Source: a virus
Taxonomy: Duplodnaviria; Caudoviricetes
Direction: 5' to 3' (one strand)
DNA length: 64,000 bases
Virus record (IMG/VR): IMGVR_UViG_3300037467_001267
Location: 8,096 to 72,095 of that record
The notes under the pieces were generated by a model that had not been told where the DNA came from, made no database searches, and saw only the letters and a list, made by a program, of their open reading frames with translations. The position numbers were made by a program, and so were the translations under genes. Positions 3,200 through 63,958 of this stretch are shown piece by piece. Numbering within the stretch: the first letter of the stretch is position 1; each line of letters opens with the position of its first letter.

Positions 3200-3489
3200 T
3201 GAGTAACCCAATCGACGAAATCCTGAATGAGTTTCGTGAAGCACGAAAGCAGGGCCGCCAGAAGTATGGCGGTAGCGATCCTGTGGGACACGACCTCAAC
3301 CACCGTCTCAGCGATTGGTTGAGGTTCGTGCGTGACCACCTCGACCGTGCGGGAGGGCCGGATGCTTTCGTGGCCCTGGACCAGCGGGAGCATCTCGTCA
3401 AGGCGGGAGGATTGCTACTCTCTGCGATCTGGGCTCTGGATGTGAACGCAGGACGCATCCCATTACCGGGAGCCGACACCCATGAGTAA
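3199..3489 (+). CDS. MazG-like all-alpha protein (putative NTP pyrophosphatase fold)
   Basis: EARKQGRQKYG..DWLRFV..REHLVKAGGLLLSAI pattern. Confidence 0.5.
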   Translation: MSNPIDEILNEFREARKQGRQKYGGSDPVGHDLNHRLSDWLRFVRDHLDRAGGPDAFVALDQREHLVKAGGLLLSAIWALDVNAGRIPLPGADTHE

Positions 3490-4120
3490 GTTTAACATGA
3501 TGACTTTACCGGCGGCGTACGAGCTGTTGGGCTTGGACATGAAGATCAAGCTCACGCCCGAGGCCCTCAGCAAAGCATATAGAAAAGCCGCGTTGGCCAA
3601 CCACCCGGACACGAAGTTCGGCGAGCTGGCGAAGCGGGAGGCCGCGGAGAAGATGGCTTCGATTAACGACGCCAAAGAGCTACTGGAGAAGCTGGTCAAC
3701 CGGGCACCGAGTTTCTCCGCCAACCCGTTCGGCACGGCGGTGCCTGTGGACGACCATCAGCTGGAAAGCAAGTTCCAGGGCGAGGTGATCGCCGCATGGG
3801 AGGCGATCGGGGCACTAATTCTTAAAGTACACGGCAACGCGTTCCAGAAGGCCGGGTGGCCGGATTTGCAGGTCTACCACGTCAAGTGGACTGGGCACCT
3901 GGAGCTCAAAGTAAACGACAACAAACCGTCCGAGATCCAGCGAATCGTGATACGCGATCTGATGGCCCGCAAGACATGGGCGTTCGTCCTGCGGATGAAG
4001 GCGGGGATCGTGTACCTGGAGAACGACCGCGGGCAGGCGATCAGCCATATGGAGGGATGGAAGAAGATGACCGCCGTCCAGCGGGCTCATTCTATGCTAA
4101 GTCTACTGGGAGTAAAGTAG
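3482..4120 (+). CDS. J-domain (HPD) fused to VRR-NUC nuclease
   Basis: LLGL..LSKAYRKAALANHPD..MASINDAKELL; C-terminal KVHGNAFQKAGWPDL..LELKV..SEIQ. Confidence 0.8.
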   Translation: MSKFNMMTLPAAYELLGLDMKIKLTPEALSKAYRKAALANHPDTKFGELAKREAAEKMASINDAKELLEKLVNRAPSFSANPFGTAVPVDDHQLESKFQGEVIAAWEAIGALILKVHGNAFQKAGWPDLQVYHVKWTGHLELKVNDNKPSEIQRIVIRDLMARKTWAFVLRMKAGIVYLENDRGQAISHMEGWKKMTAVQRAHSMLSLLGVK

Positions 4121-4303
4121 CTTTATAGGGATCGAGGTACTTGCGGCACCGCCCAGCGGAGAGCCTACATCCTAACTCTAGTAGAGATAAGAGATAAGAT
4201 AACTTTCAAAATTGCTATAGGTGTGTATCTCACGTATAGGGGTATTAAGAGTAAGGGGGTTTGGGGAAAGTCGGTGCTGCGTGGCCCCACGATCCCCGTA
4301 AAG
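4121..4303. repeat. IR-flanked AT-rich element, class 2, copy A
   Basis: Arms CTTTATAGGGATCG..GCACCG and CGGTGC..CGATCCCCGTAAAG around a GATAAGA-repeat core; homolog at 37657-37827 has the core inverted. Confidence 0.8.
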
Positions 4304-4313
4304 GAGCTTTACT

Positions 4314-4961
4314 TTGGGCGAGTTATTCGACGATTGGGACGTGTCTCCGAAGAGGAAGACTGCCGCGGAGGAGCTTTTGGACGCGCAGAAACAACATGAC
4401 CGCGAGAAGCGATCGAGGAAGGCGAGGCGGAAGAGCAAACGGCATAAGCCGCGGCGGGTGGGTGTGAACCCGTTCGCTGAGCGGGGCCTGGTCGCGATGA
4501 CGACGCCGCCTCATCAGGAGAAGGGACGTGTGGATCGGAGAGACAAGAAACTCCCGGGCGGAGGAACGAGCATGACATGCCCGGAGTGCCATCAACCTAA
4601 GCTTAAGATGTCGCTGTGGGTGGAGGACGGAGGCAGGCTGATCTGTCGTAAGTGCCACTGGAAGAAGCATCGCGCCAAGGGGAGTATGGTGACTGTGGGT
4701 GCCCTGTTTGGCGGGATGGAGCGCACGTGGGAGTTCAACTGGGACAAACTCGAAGCGGAACGCGTGAAAGCGGGGATCGGGATCCAGCACCTTGCCGCGG
4801 CGATGGGCGTTTCTCATGTTACTTACATCAACCGCAGGGACAATCACGTCACCGATCGTGTGACTGAAACGGTGGCCCGGGCGATCCTCGACGAGTTCCT
4901 GATGATGAACGTACGGACGGCGGACGACCGCTCGCTGACGCCGGATGACCGGGAAAAGTAG
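4314..4961 (+). CDS. Zinc-ribbon plus HTH-like protein (possible transcription regulator)
   Basis: CPEC..CRKC; C-terminal IQHLAAAMGVSHVTY helix-turn-helix pattern; start uncertain. Confidence 0.5.
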   Translation: MGELFDDWDVSPKRKTAAEELLDAQKQHDREKRSRKARRKSKRHKPRRVGVNPFAERGLVAMTTPPHQEKGRVDRRDKKLPGGGTSMTCPECHQPKLKMSLWVEDGGRLICRKCHWKKHRAKGSMVTVGALFGGMERTWEFNWDKLEAERVKAGIGIQHLAAAMGVSHVTYINRRDNHVTDRVTETVARAILDEFLMMNVRTADDRSLTPDDREK

Positions 4962-34619: not shown

Positions 34620-37189
34620 TTGCCCTCGTTCCCCTGTTCTCCTGGCTCGGCTCGTCCGTGGGCGGGGCGTTGTTCGGCGGCACGGCCGCTACGGCTACCG
34701 CCGCGGCAACGGGCGGGTTCGCCATCGGTTCCGCCGTCGGCACGGCCGTGGGCGTGGCGGCGGGTGCGTACATCGACAGCACGTACCTCTACCCGATGCT
34801 GATGCCGTCCCAGGACCAGAAGGGCCCACGCCTGGACGACCTGCCGATGCAGACGGCCAGCGAGGGCTCGGGCATGCACTACTGCCTGGGGGCGGAGAGC
34901 CGCGTGGCCGGCACGCTGATCTGGCTGTCGCCCCTGATCGAAGTCAAGCGGGAAGATCCAGTCGAGGGCGGCAAGGGCGGCGGCGGTGGTGCGAAGCAGA
35001 CCACGTACGACTACTACCTGGACATCGCCATCGGCGTGTGCGAAGGGCCTGTCGACGGCATCACCAAGATCTGGGCGGACAGCAAACTCATCTACGACGA
35101 GGACGGCTCGCTGCACGTCGGCGGCACGGCGACGGGCTACTCCCTGACGAGCTTCCAGCCGTTCGGCGACACTGCCCTCAACATCGGCGGAGGCACCGGC
35201 ACGTTCCTCAAGGGCGACTACGTCAAGATCCCCGGCCATGACTTGTACAAGGTCGCGGAAGACTACCCGGGCGGCGACGGGACGCTCATGATCGAGAATC
35301 CGGGGTTGGAGGACGAGGCCCACACCGGCGACTCGGTCACCCGCATCTCGCCCACGGGCGGGAACGGCATCTGGGACAACCGCATCAAGTTGGTCCGCAT
35401 CTACAACGGTGCCGACAACACACCCGACAGCATCATCGAATCGTACATGGGTGCCGGGAACGTGCCGGCGTTCAAGGACACCGTGGTGGTCGTCATTAAG
35501 GCCATGTTGCTCCGTGACTGGGGCAACCGATGCCCGCAGTTCAGCTTCCTGGTCCGGGCACAAACCCACGAGTCCGCGGCGGCGGGAATCTCGAACCTCC
35601 TGGAGCGTGCCGGCGTGGCGTTCTCGCGGGGAGAGTATAACGTCGATGCCGTGCCCAAGTCCGTCCGCGGCTACTCACTGACGGGCCCCACGGAGACCGT
35701 CAAGGCCATCGAGCCCATCCTCCAGGCGTACGACATTCTGGTCCAGGAGAGCAACAGCTCCCTCCGATTCTTCGCCCGTGGTGCCGAGACCAAGATCGAA
35801 GTGTTCGCTGATGATCTGGCCGCTGCCGAAGGCGACGGCACCGCGTCCCGCCCGTTCCGGCTGAGCGATCCGTCCGGCTTCGACCTGCCGCGGGAAGTGA
35901 ACGTCAGCTACAACGACCCCACCATCGACTGGCAGCGGGGCTCCCAGCGAATCGTCCGCAACGACGCCAACACGACGCAAGTCCTCACCATCGACGTGCC
36001 CATGACCCTCCATCCCAGCGACGCCGCCAACCTGGCCGCGTCGCGGTTGTGGCGGGGGTACGCCGAGCGGATGCAGATGGAGCTCACGCTCCCGCCCCGC
36101 TACTTCCATGCGCAAGAGAACGACATCCTCACCATCCCGTACGATGGTAACGTCTACTCCATGCGGATCCAGGAGATCAACGAGGGCGTCAACCACCTGC
36201 TCGAAGTCAAGGGCCTGCTGGTCGGCGTGGAGGACATCGACGAGTCGGTGGAGTGCGGTGCCCGCCTCAACGAGTCACCCCCGCCCGCGTTCAGTGCCCC
36301 GGTCGAGGTCATGATCCAGGACGCACCCGCCCTGGCGGCGGAACATGCCGACGAGACGGGGGTGTACATCACCGCCGCGAGCAACTCGGCCATCTCCAAC
36401 TTCGCCGGGGCGGCGGTGTACGCCAGCACCGACGGCACGAACTTCTCCCAGGTCACCGACATCCAGGCCCCGGCATCGACCGGGTACGCGGCCACCATCC
36501 TGCCTACGTCACAGCCCGGCGTCTGGGACACCGAATCGTCGCTGGAGATCGAGATGATCGAGGGCGACCTGCAGAGCGTGACGGACGAGCGGGTGTATAA
36601 TGGCGCCAACCGGATGTGGGTGGGCAAGGAACTGGTGGCCTACCGAGACGCCACGCTGATCGGCCCGCGTCGGTACAAGTTGACGAACTTCCTGCGGGGA
36701 CTCCGGAGCACGCCCACCGACGGCCACGACATGGCCGAGCTTTGCGTCGTGGTGTCGCCGAACACGCACCAGTTCCTCCCACTCAACCGGAGCGGCACGC
36801 ACCACTTCAAGGTCGTCCAGCTCGGGGAGACCCTGGAGGACGTCAGCACCCAAACTGTCGAAGTCGCTGGTGGGCCGGCACGGCAACTCGCCCCGATCGT
36901 CCATACCGCCTACCGCGACACCGACGGTGCCCTGACCGTCGAATGGTTCCGCCGCACCCGCTATCCGGTGCCGGTATGGTCCGCGTACAAACCCCTCGGC
37001 AGCGAGGTGGAGGTGTACGAGGTGGACTTCGGTGGGCTGCGCACCAAACAAGTTTCTTCCCCGTCCGTCACGTACAGTGCGGCGGAGCAAACCGAAGATG
37101 GACTCACGCCGGGCGACCCCGTCGTGGTGACCATTTACCAACTCAGTGAGCGGGTGGGCCGTGGCTACCCCGCACAGGAGACGTTATGA
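34610..37189 (+). CDS. Central tail/baseplate protein (GTA Phage-tail_3 family)
   Basis: GPRLDDL..CEGPVDGITKIWAD..LPREVNVSY..LRG..T; C-terminal WFRRTR. Confidence 0.85.
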   Translation: MAVVALVPLFSWLGSSVGGALFGGTAATATAAATGGFAIGSAVGTAVGVAAGAYIDSTYLYPMLMPSQDQKGPRLDDLPMQTASEGSGMHYCLGAESRVAGTLIWLSPLIEVKREDPVEGGKGGGGGAKQTTYDYYLDIAIGVCEGPVDGITKIWADSKLIYDEDGSLHVGGTATGYSLTSFQPFGDTALNIGGGTGTFLKGDYVKIPGHDLYKVAEDYPGGDGTLMIENPGLEDEAHTGDSVTRISPTGGNGIWDNRIKLVRIYNGADNTPDSIIESYMGAGNVPAFKDTVVVVIKAMLLRDWGNRCPQFSFLVRAQTHESAAAGISNLLERAGVAFSRGEYNVDAVPKSVRGYSLTGPTETVKAIEPILQAYDILVQESNSSLRFFARGAETKIEVFADDLAAAEGDGTASRPFRLSDPSGFDLPREVNVSYNDPTIDWQRGSQRIVRNDANTTQVLTIDVPMTLHPSDAANLAASRLWRGYAERMQMELTLPPRYFHAQENDILTIPYDGNVYSMRIQEINEGVNHLLEVKGLLVGVEDIDESVECGARLNESPPPAFSAPVEVMIQDAPALAAEHADETGVYITAASNSAISNFAGAAVYASTDGTNFSQVTDIQAPASTGYAATILPTSQPGVWDTESSLEIEMIEGDLQSVTDERVYNGANRMWVGKELVAYRDATLIGPRRYKLTNFLRGLRSTPTDGHDMAELCVVVSPNTHQFLPLNRSGTHHFKVVQLGETLEDVSTQTVEVAGGPARQLAPIVHTAYRDTDGALTVEWFRRTRYPVPVWSAYKPLGSEVEVYEVDFGGLRTKQVSSPSVTYSAAEQTEDGLTPGDPVVVTIYQLSERVGRGYPAQETL

Positions 37190-37647
37190 TTCAGACCACT
37201 CCCCGACATGCCTTGCCTCTCGTTGACGGCAACCAGGCGTCCCAGGAAGTCCCGCACAACACGTCCATCGTGGGCCTGGACCAGCTGACGAACCTCGCCG
37301 TGTCCTCGGTCAAGACGCTGTCGAACACGCCGCCCGGTGCTCCGGCGAACGGCGATGCGCACATCGTCGGAGGCACGCCCACTGGCGCATGGGCCGGCAA
37401 CGCCGACAACGTGGCGTACTATTACTCTGGCTGGAAGTTCTTCACGCCCGTCGAGGGCATGAAGGTCTGGGCCAAGGACGAAGACGTGATCTACATCTAC
37501 GACGGCACGGCATGGAACGCAGCGAGCGTCGTGCCGAAGTACACCACCGCCGGTCTGCCTGCGCACAAGCAAGGCCTGATCGTCTTCGACACGACCAGCG
37601 GGCAGTTCAAAGGATCAACCGGCACGGCGTGGGTGGTCCTGGGGTAA
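37186..37647 (+). CDS. DUF2793 tail-associated protein
   Basis: QASQEVPHN..PPGAPANGDAHIV..GAWAG..WKFFTP.EG. Confidence 0.85.
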   Translation: MIQTTPRHALPLVDGNQASQEVPHNTSIVGLDQLTNLAVSSVKTLSNTPPGAPANGDAHIVGGTPTGAWAGNADNVAYYYSGWKFFTPVEGMKVWAKDEDVIYIYDGTAWNAASVVPKYTTAGLPAHKQGLIVFDTTSGQFKGSTGTAWVVLG

Positions 37648-37656
37648 GTAAAGGGG

Positions 37657-37827
37657 CTTTATGGGAATCCGTCCTCCTCGGGCACCGCTTCTACCTTCGT
37701 ATACTATCTCACTACTCTATACACATATATAGCAAAACCATATATCTTATCTTATCTCTTATAGGGTAGGGAGTTAGATGAGGGCGGGCGGAGGGTCGGT
37801 GCTGCATGGGCCTCGATTCCCGTAAAG
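37657..37827. repeat. IR-flanked AT-rich element, class 2, copy B (core inverted relative to copy A)
   Basis: Arms CTTTATGGGAATC..GGCACCG and CGGTGC..GATTCCCGTAAAG; core TATCTTATCTTATCTCTTAT. Confidence 0.8.
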
Positions 37828-37898
37828 GGTCTTTAGTCGCCACGATTCCTGCTCGCTGGTGGGTTTCCCACGGGCAGGCGTGGTGGAAAATTTTCTGG

Positions 37899-37927
37899 TT
37901 TACTTTTGGTGGAGGGTCGCTTAGGAT
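37899..37927 (+). promoter_or_regulatory. Sigma70-type promoter
   Basis: TTTACT-17-TAGGAT, AATTTTCTGG upstream, GATAGGAGATAG downstream. Confidence 0.7.
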
Positions 37928-37967
37928 TCGGTCAGTCAGATTTGGACGCCGATAGGAGATAGTAATC

Positions 37968-39131
37968 ATGTCTACCGTGAACCAGTACCTCGCTAAGCTG
38001 TTCCTGAAGAACGAAGCCATCGAGAAGCACTTCACCGACGCCCAGATCTGCGAGATGATGGCTCAGCGGTTCCCGGGCACGGCCGCGAGCCGCCCCGAGA
38101 AGATTCGCTATCGCCGCCAGCAGTTCAACGAGAACATGGGCCAGTTCGAAGGGATGAACCCGGACAAGGTCGTGTCCTACGAGTACGATGCCGACGGCAA
38201 CCAGGTCCAGCCGGTCAAGACCGTCACGAAGCGGGTGGTGGTCGAGGGCGGAGTTACCGCCGACCAGGTCAAGGAAATTGTGGACGAAGCCATCGCCCAG
38301 CAGGCCGCGAAGGAGAAGCCTGCGATCACGATCACCGTGCCGAGCCGCAACCACTCGATCACGATGCCGAGCGACGACGTTCACGAGAAGTTCCAGAAGG
38401 CACTGATCAAGCTCAAGGCGGGCGTGCCGGTGCTCCTGGTTGGACCTGCTGGCTCGGGCAAGACGACTCTCGCTAAGCAACTCGCTGCCGCCCTGGGGCT
38501 CCAGTTCACGTTTAACTCGATGTCGCTGGGCACCAAAGAGACGGACATCCTGGGCCGCACGCTCCCTGACGAGAAGGGCAACTGGATCTATCGCCCCAGC
38601 CCGTTCGTTAACACGTACCAGAACGGTGGGCTCCACCTGTTTGACGAAATCGACGCCAGCGACCCGAACCTGCTGGTGAGCATTAACGCCGCCATCGCGA
38701 ATAAGCTCCTGAGCATTCCCTTCCGTGACGACCCCACGCCCATCGCGATGCACGAGGATACTCTGATCATCGCTGCGGCGAATACGTACGGGAATGGGGC
38801 CAACCGGATGTACGTCGGTCGCAACCAACTCGATGCGGCGACCCTGAATCGGTTCACCATGGGGACGATCACGATCGACTACGATCGCAAGTTGGAAGCT
38901 CGTCTGACTCCCTCCCGCCTCGGTGGGAACACCGCGATGGCGGAGGTTCTGCTGAACTGGGCCTGGACGACGAGGGAGCGTATCGACCGCAACGCCCTCA
39001 AGCGGATCATGAGCACCCGGAACATCCTCGATGCCGCCGACTGCCTCCATGCGGGCGAGACGATGGACGAGATCAAGACGACGTATTTTGAGGGCTGGTC
39101 GCAGGACGAACTGCGGGCGGTCGCTGCCTAA
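37968..39131 (+). CDS. MoxR/CbbQ/CobS-like AAA+ ATPase
   Basis: GPAGSGKT, LFDEID, AAANTYG..YVGRNQLDAATLNRF. Confidence 0.9.
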   Translation: MSTVNQYLAKLFLKNEAIEKHFTDAQICEMMAQRFPGTAASRPEKIRYRRQQFNENMGQFEGMNPDKVVSYEYDADGNQVQPVKTVTKRVVVEGGVTADQVKEIVDEAIAQQAAKEKPAITITVPSRNHSITMPSDDVHEKFQKALIKLKAGVPVLLVGPAGSGKTTLAKQLAAALGLQFTFNSMSLGTKETDILGRTLPDEKGNWIYRPSPFVNTYQNGGLHLFDEIDASDPNLLVSINAAIANKLLSIPFRDDPTPIAMHEDTLIIAAANTYGNGANRMYVGRNQLDAATLNRFTMGTITIDYDRKLEARLTPSRLGGNTAMAEVLLNWAWTTRERIDRNALKRIMSTRNILDAADCLHAGETMDEIKTTYFEGWSQDELRAVAA

Positions 39132-39171: not shown

Positions 39172-39192
39172 CCCGGGAGATAGGAGATAGGA

Positions 39193-40020
39193 ATGAAACT
39201 GCCCCCGATCAAAACCGATGGACGCATCCGCCGACACGAGTATACGGGCGTGGGCCATGCCGTAGACATCGCGGTGTCCGGCGACAGCCGTACGGAAGCA
39301 GGTCGAAAGATCGGCGACAAGCTCTCCACGATGAGCACGAGCTGGACTGGTTACAAGTCGGCTCGCGATAACCGCGAAGCGGACATCGAAACGCTTGCGA
39401 CGATCCGGCAGATCCGCGACCGCATCGAGCGGCAGCTGGACCTGCCCCAGCAGACCGTTCGCCGTCGCCGGCATGGTCTCGACTCGGGTGCGGAGCTTGA
39501 TCCGATCGCCTGGGTCCAACGTGACCCGTACGGCTGGACGGATACGCTCCGCGAACCGCAGACCAAGCGTGTGATCCGCATCGGAGTGAATCTGGTCCTC
39601 TCCTCGTTCATGGGGCAAAGCTACGTGCTCTATCGCGGGGCGTGCGCCGTGGCTCTGGCGGATATTCTTTCCTCGCAGGGTATCGACGTGGAGTTGGTCG
39701 CCTTTAAAGCATCGAGCGATGCGGACGGCGCAGGTCAGACCGATGTGCAGAGCGTCGTGGTTAAGGCGAGCGATCAGCCGTTAAACCTCGCTGCCTGTGC
39801 GACGTGTTTCTGCTCGCTGAGTTTCGTCCGAACCGTGCTTCTGGCCGGCCAAGCTCGTATGTGCCCGCTGCCTCCCCATTCCTCGATGGGCTCGCCCACG
39901 AATTTGCCGGAGGAGGATCGTAAAGGTTTCGACGTTATCATCGACCAAGACGTACAAACGTACGATGGGGCCGTCACCCGCGTCTTAGAAGAGGTTAGGA
40001 AGGCTTCCGGGCGGGCGTAG
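39193..40020 (+). CDS. vWA/CobT-like partner of the AAA+ ATPase
   Basis: RRRRHGLDSGAELDP..; degenerate MIDAS region; VELVAF; adjacent to MoxR. Confidence 0.65.
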   Translation: MKLPPIKTDGRIRRHEYTGVGHAVDIAVSGDSRTEAGRKIGDKLSTMSTSWTGYKSARDNREADIETLATIRQIRDRIERQLDLPQQTVRRRRHGLDSGAELDPIAWVQRDPYGWTDTLREPQTKRVIRIGVNLVLSSFMGQSYVLYRGACAVALADILSSQGIDVELVAFKASSDADGAGQTDVQSVVVKASDQPLNLAACATCFCSLSFVRTVLLAGQARMCPLPPHSSMGSPTNLPEEDRKGFDVIIDQDVQTYDGAVTRVLEEVRKASGRA

Positions 40021-56073: not shown

Positions 56074-56150
56074 GCTCGCGTTGGGGATATTCCGGGAATC
56101 CGCCCCGATCGGAGGGCGTGAAAACCGCCCTCCTCGACGCTAGCCTATCT

Positions 56151-56225
56151 CCTGCGCCCGCCTGCTGGTGCTAGGGGCTCCGGAGTCTTCCGATATAGCC
56201 CGACCTGCGAAAACCAGCAGGCGGG
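56151..56225. repeat. Inverted-repeat element, class 1, copy B (inverted relative to copy A)
   Basis: CCCGCCTGCTGGT/ACCAGCAGGCGGG 13-bp IR; contains CCTGCGAAAACCAGCAGGC, the exact reverse complement of 2138-2156. Confidence 0.8.
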
Positions 56226-56376
56226 ATGCTAGGAGGCCATACTCTCACCTAACTGCTCATGGGCACGGAAATCGGAGCCTCGAAACCACCCATGATTTCA
56301 GAATTCGTGAAAATTTATTTGCCCGTGATTTCTCGACCAAAAGTGGTGCTCGTTCTGGATTCTAGAAATTTTCTGG

Positions 56377-58297: not shown

Positions 58298-58457
58298 CTA
58301 TGATACGCTGGCCGTCGTGACGTGGAAGGGCCAGCCGTTTTCCTGGGAGAATCCGCCCAGCGAGCCCGTCACCGAACTGGTGTTCCACAACCTGGCCGAC
58401 GATGAATTGGAGATCGTAAAATCGACGTGCGCGGCGTTCGGATGGTTGACTTTATAG
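58227..58457 (+). CDS. Hypothetical protein
   Basis: GAGGAG RBS. Confidence 0.55.
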   Translation: MKTLLARPGPGAAATPAQLVEELSYDTLAVVTWKGQPFSWENPPSEPVTELVFHNLADDELEIVKSTCAAFGWLTL

Positions 58458-63671: not shown

Positions 63672-63875
63672 ATGAAATTCGAAATCGGACATCGGGTGTC
63701 GGTCGCGGGTCGCGGGATGGCGACGGTGGTTGCGAACGAAGTTGGGTTTGGGACGTTGCCCGACGATGTCGCGGTTCGGCAGTACGATGTGCGGCTCGAT
63801 GCTCCGCGCATCTCCTCGATGACCGGGCAGCCGACCATGTCTCCGATTCGCGTCACCGAAGACATGCTCAAGTAG
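63672..63875 (+). CDS. Small SH3/KOW-like early protein
   Basis: FEIGHRVSV..ATVV..YDVRLD pattern; shared leader. Confidence 0.6.
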   Translation: MKFEIGHRVSVAGRGMATVVANEVGFGTLPDDVAVRQYDVRLDAPRISSMTGQPTMSPIRVTEDMLK

Positions 63876-63936
63876 CCGAAACGGCCGCATGGTCGTCTGC
63901 CGGAGATTAACCCCCCGGCACTGACGAGGCAGGTTA
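63875..63936 (+). ncRNA. Type II hammerhead ribozyme
   Basis: GCC-GAAA-stem III-GUC-stem I-CUGACGA-GGC with all core nucleotides, plus TAACC/GGTTA pseudoknot. Confidence 0.9.
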
Positions 63937-63958
63937 CCTCAAGATAGGAGAAAGCGTC

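Follow-up and report, generated by a model that had tools for sequence, protein, structure and literature searches.

Two mirrored intergenic cassettes flank the virion gene block of an uncultivated soil phage and may mark the boundaries of its late transcript

We analyzed a stretch of 64,000 nucleotides (hereafter, the window), which comprises bases 8096–72095 of a 72,095-bp IMG/VR virus record from an uncultivated soil phage. The GC content of the 72-kb genome is 62%, and the + strand carries essentially all plausible genes. Both ends of the record are located inside ORFs and share no terminal repeat (1–120 compared with 71976–72095). Thus, the record is probably cut or circularly permuted, though it is rated 100% complete. 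A search for tRNA and tmRNA genes found none. Two non-coding cassettes of ~190 bases, element A (4113–4311) and element B (37649–37835), flank a 33-kb virion block. A preliminary description of this DNA had recognized both elements, and its coordinates for them were confirmed in the sequence. It had correctly described symmetric arms, a directional AT-rich core, and one copy at either end of the packaging and virion block. The inverted repeat, however, reaches further outward than first described, and every end is a 13-bp palindrome, TAAAG-NNN-CTTTA. The features around the two elements are as follows.

3482–4120, + strand: J-domain plus nuclease-like gene, upstream of A (ORF, Pfam and PHROG scans)
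4113–4125, no strand: left boundary palindrome of A, TAAAG-TAG-CTTTA (pattern scan)
4121–4151, + strand: left arm of A, which pairs with 4272–4303 (alignment, folding, covariation)
4152–4271, + strand: core of A, 42% GC (motif, profile, composition), with 2.5 tandem GATAAG units at 4186–4203 and TGCTATAGG at 4212–4220
4272–4303, + strand: right arm of A (alignment, folding, covariation)
4299–4311, no strand: right boundary palindrome of A, TAAAG-GAG-CTTTA (pattern scan)
4314–4961, + strand: late block gene 1, 215 aa, TTG start
37186–37647, + strand: final virion-block gene, DUF2793 tail-fibre-like (Pfam and PHROG scans)
37649–37661, no strand: left boundary palindrome of B, TAAAG-GGG-CTTTA (pattern scan)
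37657–37687, + strand: left arm of B (alignment, folding, covariation)
37688–37796, − strand: core of B, reverse complement of the A core (blastn, profile, composition), with tandem GATAAG units at ~37744–37761 and TGCTATATAT at 37725–37734, both on the minus strand
37797–37827, + strand: right arm of B (alignment, folding, covariation)
37823–37835, no strand: right boundary palindrome of B, TAAAG-GGT-CTTTA (pattern scan)
37899–37967, + strand: early-type promoter TTTACT, 17 nt, TAGGAT, with conserved leader GATAGGAGATAG, ~65 nt after B

As listed, the block from 4314 to 37647 begins with the gene of a 215-aa protein and additionally encodes a 178-aa protein, TerL, head and tail proteins, and a Phage-tail_3/Rcc01698-type tail protein. 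The 215-aa protein has a basic N-terminus, a CxxC...CxxC zinc ribbon, and a C-terminal helix-turn-helix (HTH)-like segment. It gave no match in Pfam or PHROG and was not recognisable as a small terminase; the Atlas leads were weak and of the Cro/C1 type, with scores below 0.9. Among 5.8 billion protein clusters, a single distant homologue was found (P0002, 53% identity, on a 3-kb contig), whose N-terminus, MGDVFDDWD, confirms the TTG start at 4314. Downstream of B lie the genes of an AAA ATPase, an SNF2 helicase, a primase-helicase, and PolA, followed by the rest of the replication module.

Both elements are fitted closely to the gene borders. Across the complete 72-kb sequence, the only TAAAG-NNN-CTTTA palindromes are these four, which start at 4113, 4299, 37649, and 37823, and shuffled sequences are expected to contain 0.00 copies. 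The stop codon TAG of the upstream gene (4118–4120) is the spacer of the left palindrome of A. Similarly, the Shine-Dalgarno sequence AAGGAG (4301–4306) is located inside the right palindrome of A, 7 nt before the TTG codon at 4314, and B begins 2 nt past the stop codon of the last tail gene. A leftward promoter-like site (4116–4089, − strand: TTTACT, 16 nt, TAGAAT; 9 of 12 matches) starts within the left palindrome of A and is directed antisense into the J-domain/nuclease gene. No counterpart of this site is kept at B, and it is probably due to chance. A half-arm had also been reported at 58450. The exact 10-mer is indeed present there (0.03 expected), but its local alignment score of 30 compared with a random-window maximum of 32, and the half-arm was treated as a chance match. 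As a separate observation, a second, unrelated intergenic pair is located at 2117–2211 and 56150–56243. These copies are 54 kb apart and opposite in orientation, and their 57-nt and 31-nt arms are 75% and 87% complementary, respectively. Since these copies, too, are located at borders between modules, the genome contains two mirrored pairs, one nested in the other.

Next to B, the early-type promoter and its leader are followed by the gene start at 37968, where the AAA ATPase and the replication module begin. We observed about ten near-identical early promoters on the + strand (37899, ~39140, 56377, 56742, ~57215, 58446, 60391, 60744, ~63353, and 63621). The family consists of an A/T-rich upstream tract, TTGACT, 17 nt, TAGGAT or TAGTAT, and a very short leader, GCAGATAGGAGATAG, which ends 2–6 nt ahead of the start codon. 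This leader is presumably similar to GGGATAGGAGCCC, the 'start-associated sequence' described in Cluster K mycobacteriophages. No early-type promoter was found on the + strand between 4.3 and 37.6 kb. In addition, a complete type II hammerhead ribozyme (63874–63938, + strand; Rfam RF02276, 40.1 bits against a gathering threshold of 37) is located between small early genes.

Conservation in related phages, a check suggested in the preliminary description, was then analyzed, and the B site was found to be occupied in three related IMG/VR contigs. Pattern scans of IMG/VR detected the element in only these three other contigs, namely L016 (~98% identical), L017 (~80% identical in the flanking genes), and L079 (the same as L103; ~83% identical). 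In all three, the element follows the last tail gene and precedes the ATPase promoter, the core is in the B orientation, and the early-type promoter ~65 nt after B is kept. No orthologue of A was found in IMG/VR scans with the 215-aa protein and TerL or in two metagenome scans, and a scan with the early-promoter pattern yielded no further relatives. No copy of the element was found in IMG/VR outside this clade. A blastn search of 50,697 phage records with both elements returned 0 matches. Among 185,579 bacterial and archaeal genomes, the combined boundary-plus-core pattern was matched only by three AT-rich Acholeplasmataceae contigs, which were chance matches. Rfam gave 0 matches both at the gathering threshold and at E-values up to 10, consistent with the earlier remark that no named element is known to have this layout. 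The element is so far confined to a small clade of uncultivated phages.

Two further observations were made in the relatives. The last tail gene of L079 (L079:1161–2156) also encodes a DUF2793 protein, of which the C-terminal part is different and ~130 aa longer; it shares 62% identity with the 37186–37647 protein across the shared 113 aa. Nucleotide homology of L079 to this genome restarts only past the element, indicating that a host-range module swap abuts the conserved cassette. In MW202621 (MW202621.1), whose TerL marks it as a distant relative (47% identity), AT content peaks in an island directly upstream of terS. This island (~39190–39330; L081:4290–4430) has a minimum GC of 0.17 and is the most AT-rich part of the 46 kb examined. 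TATAAT-like boxes occur in it, as do AGAAATAAGAAACAG-type repeats in tandem, and it was found only once within these 46 kb.

We then compared the two copies with each other. With an nhmmer profile of the core, one copy was found on each strand of the genome and no others. Similarly, blastn of A against the genome returned a minus-strand match (E-value 6e-4) and a plus-strand match of the arms (E-value 4e-6). This arrangement had been described as identical arms around a flipped core. The inversion of the core was borne out, but it is indistinguishable from inversion of the whole element (score 90 for A against B and 89 for A against the reverse complement of B), because the arms are near-palindromic. 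Two asymmetric arm positions favor direct arms, whereas the arm interiors favor whole-element inversion. The arms are imperfect in this genome, with 22/27 and 17/21 positions matching, and a small sub-segment, TATCTCAC, looks locally flipped between A and B. The A core aligned with the reverse complements of the B-type cores with z-scores of 4.7–6.9, and the B-type cores aligned among themselves with z-scores of 5.9–8.5. The A core was not nearer to the B core of its own genome than to those of other phages. This equidistance indicates that the two copies arose by an old duplication and that one and the same sequence constraint applies to both. The constraint on the core must therefore operate either on duplex DNA or on a process with opposite directions at the two sites. 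The equidistance also led us to reject both RNA pairing between the A and B loops and gene conversion between A and B. A role of the B RNA as an antisense 'sponge' of the conserved early leader AGATAGGAGATAG was also considered and rejected; the 11-bp match seen here is not kept in L017.

The pairing of the arms was analyzed across the copies. Of the 22 pairs in the outer stem, eight have changed on both strands of the stem, and 93% of the cells are paired. In 500 shuffles, no equally good result was obtained, and slid controls paired at 31–52%. The flanking genes are ~20% divergent at the nucleotide level, so unconstrained sites should be near saturation. The fold z-scores were −8.9 and −10.2 for L017 and L079, in which the stems are 40–55 bp long, and −2.9 and −2.5 for A and B. 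The stem is composed of two A/U-rich helices (GUAAAG with CUUUAY), a 3 × 3 internal loop, and at least 14 more pairs. It thereby shows the features looked for in an RNase III site, that is, ~20 bp or more of double-stranded RNA, an internal loop, and conserved pairing. In L079, the local end palindromes are partly lost, yet the ends form a perfect 39-nt inverted repeat, indicating that the ends belong to the repeat and not to a target duplication. The end-to-end distances of 186, 174, 193, and ~179 bp are not helically phased, which argues against protein-bridged operators and for a hairpin; on this ground, DNA looping between the end palindromes was rejected. Since the pairing is kept while the arm sequence drifts, and since the spacing is unphased, these comparisons indicate that the stem is under selection for intramolecular pairing, and not as two protein sites. 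The same drift of arm sequence under persistent pairing, together with the unphased 174–193-bp spacing, argues against the earlier proposal that the arms are initiator-binding sites. Cruciform extrusion in duplex DNA would be costly with a 110-nt loop, so a single-stranded molecule is the likelier carrier of the stem. The rightward transcript would be the obvious such molecule. A DNA-level (ssDNA) hairpin is also possible, because the stem mismatches show no clear sense-strand G·U bias; L079 has two sense-strand A·C mismatches.

The core was different in character. RNAalifold found no conserved structure in it on either strand, but it carries ordered motifs, which in the A orientation read CCTAYMTCTAA, ~10 nt, 2.5 tandem GATAA(A)G units, ~12 nt, and TGCTAWAW. 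The last motif is common to all four cores, and the distance from CTAA to the second GATAA repeat is 17 nt in 4/4 independent sequences. The AT content of the genome peaks at A and B, with minimum GC of 0.30 and 0.27 per 60 nt, respectively; all other sites are at 0.35 or above. The strand composition of the elements is highly asymmetric. The sense strand of B at 37683–37762 contains 3 G and 23 C per 80 nt and is the most G-depleted 80-nt segment of the genome (mean 25.6 G per 80 nt, sd 4.0; next-lowest segment, 11 G). The minimum-G segment of L017 and L079 (5 G) is likewise located on the element. On the sense strand of A, the 80 nt from 4191 contain 6 C and 25 G, a C count that ties for the minimum of the genome, and five of the seven other lowest-C segments are early promoter regions. 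A Rho-loading (rut) site is an unstructured tract of ~80 nt with C and without G. The B sense-strand tract thus matches the composition expected of a rut site: a C-rich, G-poor, unstructured tract of ~70–80 nt was present in the sense RNA of B and not in that of A. No intrinsic terminator (a G+C-rich hairpin plus a U-tract) was found on the + strand of A or in B; 3′ of the stem there is only CUUUA(C)UUU, with no direct U-tract. A consensus sigma-70 scan found no promoter inside either core. The sequence TTGCTA, 17 nt, TATAGG in A is a weak match and is absent from the B-type cores. Consensus sites for IHF, DnaA (DnaA-box), and CtrA were compared by eye and rejected, with at most 6/9 matches or 2–3 mismatches.

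Several explanations were weighed against these results. The functions put forward in the preliminary description, namely paired replication origins, an invertible switch, and packaging sites, received no support. Paired or bipartite replication origins, a somewhat unlikely explanation, would make the core an unwinding element and the GATAA(A)G repeats initiator sites, with the arms stabilizing the opened state. Replication would be primed by a purine-rich RNA (R-loop) made from the promoter-like segment and would start in opposite directions at the two copies. The extreme AT content of both sites, the 2.5 tandem repeats of 7–8 nt with conserved spacing, and the position of B directly upstream of the replication module are consistent with origins, and the mirrored orientation would be natural for a directional replication signal. 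The cumulative GC skew also reaches a local minimum at ~37.9 kb, at B. We gave this minimum little weight because it coincides with the border of a high-GC3 block and is confounded by codon usage; the skew change tracks this highly expressed gene block, and the other turning point is at ~8 kb, not at A. Furthermore, the arms keep their pairing and not their sequence, unlike initiator-binding sites, and the overlap with a stop codon and a Shine-Dalgarno sequence fits expression signals better. Recognition of the elements by a phage DNA-binding protein, which would act at both borders of the virion block as a late activator, a late repressor, or a roadblock, is in our view distinctly unlikely. 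The protein might be the 215-aa HTH/zinc-ribbon protein encoded beside A, or a ribbon-helix-helix regulator reading the tandem heptads. Conserved primary-sequence motifs in cores of both orientations, palindromes unique to the four ends, and, weakly, the HTH-like segment of the neighboring gene product speak for it. It is opposed by the unphased palindrome spacing, by L079, in which the local palindromes are degraded while the long-range complementarity is perfect, and by the 215-aa protein itself, which lacks Pfam and PHROG matches and has Atlas scores below 0.9.

Movement or inversion of the elements was given still lower probability. A non-autonomous mobile element (MITE/REPIN-like or a small site-specific cassette) that landed twice in opposite orientations would account for the terminal inverted repeats and for two opposite copies that are both intergenic. 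Moreover, the end palindromes of L017 are perfect 16-bp direct repeats, like a duplicated target. Nevertheless, this origin appears very unlikely. There are only two copies, and the B site is occupied in every relative; the flanks are GAG/GAG in L017, TAG/GAG in A, GGG/GGT in B, and inverted AGG/CCT in L079, a pattern other than target-site duplication. No copies were found in the phage records, in IMG/VR outside the clade, or in the prokaryote genomes, and no transposase among the proteins scanned. The equal distance of A from all B-type cores points instead to an old duplication with both copies constrained. An invertible phase-variable switch, in which the arms recombine and thereby turn the core around at either locus, had been proposed in the preliminary description. 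Inverted repeats do flank the core, the core occurs in both orientations when A is compared with B, and the local flip of TATCTCAC suggests a past template switch or inversion. However, B had one and the same orientation in 4/4 assemblies (the window, L016, L017, and L079), and the arms are imperfect (22/27 and 17/21). Serine and tyrosine recombinases were absent from the 40 proteins scanned with Pfam and PHROGs, a set that excludes the first 8 kb of the genome and some small ORFs. The switch is therefore highly improbable.

The explanation that we tentatively prefer, although we hold it to be possible rather than probable, is that A and B are paired transcript-boundary cassettes, each combining a processing or termination hairpin with a directional core that is promoter-like in A and terminator-like in B. 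From the anatomy, copy number, conservation, covariation, composition, and placement of the elements, we infer its functional steps, namely RNA cleavage, Rho loading, and promoter activity. A and B would be old paralogous cis-acting intergenic cassettes that punctuate the 33-kb late transcription unit in two layers. In the first layer, the inverted repeat would fold in the rightward polycistronic RNA, and the hairpin would serve RNase III-type processing or termination, parting the late message from the neighboring messages. At A, the hairpin would in addition keep the Shine-Dalgarno sequence of the first late gene hidden until cleavage or melting of the stem. In the second layer, the AT-rich asymmetric core of ~110 nt would be read as primary sequence and thus be directional, with the cores at A and B facing inward, toward the virion block. 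A is a candidate late promoter region within the hairpin loop, since its sense strand is C-poor like the early promoter regions. A transcript begun in the A loop would carry the 3′ arm only and escape the hairpin; incoming read-through RNA would fold and be cut or stopped, while the new RNA would be spared. B is a candidate late terminator, since its G-poor, C-containing sense strand has rut-site composition. The late transcript may end through this rut-like core, and the early-type promoter ~65 nt downstream would restart transcription.

The exact placement at gene borders, the early-type promoter after B that is kept in the relatives, and the absence of such promoters from the + strand of the late block agree with transcript-boundary cassettes. 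So do the selected stem pairing (8 double changes among 22 pairs, matched by 0/500 shuffles), a core without a conserved fold but with ordered motifs at fixed spacing in both orientations, and the extreme strand asymmetry. The AT-rich island of MW202621 likewise lies just 5′ of terS, and the hammerhead ribozyme confirmed in this genome is another RNA punctuation signal, which suits a phage that depends strongly on such signals but is not independent evidence. However, several observations fit this explanation poorly. A promoter in the B copy would be antisense to the tail genes, and the promoter reading leaves this copy unexplained; the rut reading accounts for B only, unless leftward transcripts exist. 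Neither element contains a consensus sigma-70 promoter or an intrinsic terminator, and the stem mismatches lack a clear sense-strand G·U bias. In addition, the tandem repeats of 7–8 nt are more like protein sites or iterons than what RNase or Rho needs. A more specific and unlikely proposal is that A and B are mirror-image polar boundary modules, in which an inward start signal sits in the loop of a transcript-destroying hairpin and is combined with an outward Rho-loading tract, so that the virion block would be insulated on both strands. Either a late promoter or an R-loop that starts replication could supply the inward signal; in the latter case, A and B would be convergent origins for the primase-MCM helicase. 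To our knowledge, this design has not been described for phages.

Phages transcribed from one strand must still part early, middle, and late expression, and the signals for this are known for few model phages. The A/B pair is a concrete candidate, and one that can be cloned, for the signals that begin and finish the late transcript of a high-GC soil phage whose DNA is probably hypermodified. Should the hairpin-enclosed promoter or the polar terminator prove true, it would be a compact insulator design, reusable in synthetic biology. Should the elements instead prove to be origins, a DnaG-MCM fusion helicase would have its first assigned cis sites.

Finally, the elements were compared with known systems; for every compared family, the elements either lack one or more of the defining features that were checked, or their membership would depend on functional properties that are putative here. 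Invertons (fimS, hin, and gin) similarly have inverted repeats around an AT-rich, promoter-like segment of ~100–300 bp. They differ in that a recombinase gene was not found here among the proteins scanned and the B orientation is fixed in all assemblies. T4 oriF/oriG, the T7 primary origin, and P4 ori/crr share an AT-rich melting region by a promoter-like segment and short repeats. P4 ori and crr are both bound by the P4 primase-helicase, and P4-type origins resemble the present case further in that two related cis elements and a primase-helicase fusion gene occur in one genome. In contrast to A and B, these origins have no long flanking inverted repeats and no mirrored pair around virion genes. 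The Correia/NEMIS MITEs of Neisseria are alike in their length of 100–200 bp, terminal inverted repeats, a core resembling a protein site or promoter, and location at gene borders, and their transcripts form hairpins that are cut by RNase III. Unlike these MITEs, A and B are two syntenic copies, with no TA duplication, no copies in the bacterial genomes searched, and no sequence similarity to them. Rho terminators (rut, the 'C>G bubble', for example lambda tR1) are similar to B in its ~80 nt with 23 C and 3 G, its place at an operon end, and the promoter that comes next. By contrast, the B tract is enclosed by a long stem and its termination is predicted, and its upstream paralogue A is opposite and could load Rho on antisense RNA only. 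RNase III sites (T7 R0.3–R18.5; lambda N-leader and sib) are different in that the loop of the present elements is ~110 nt long, with conserved sequence, extreme asymmetry, and opposite orientation in the two copies, that the end palindromes are conserved in sequence, and that cleavage is putative. Nevertheless, the elements and these sites are alike in their intercistronic location, in the conservation of pairing over sequence, in a ribosome-binding site that can be masked, and in the build of two ~10-bp helices with an internal loop, which in L079 becomes a continuous duplex of ~40 bp.
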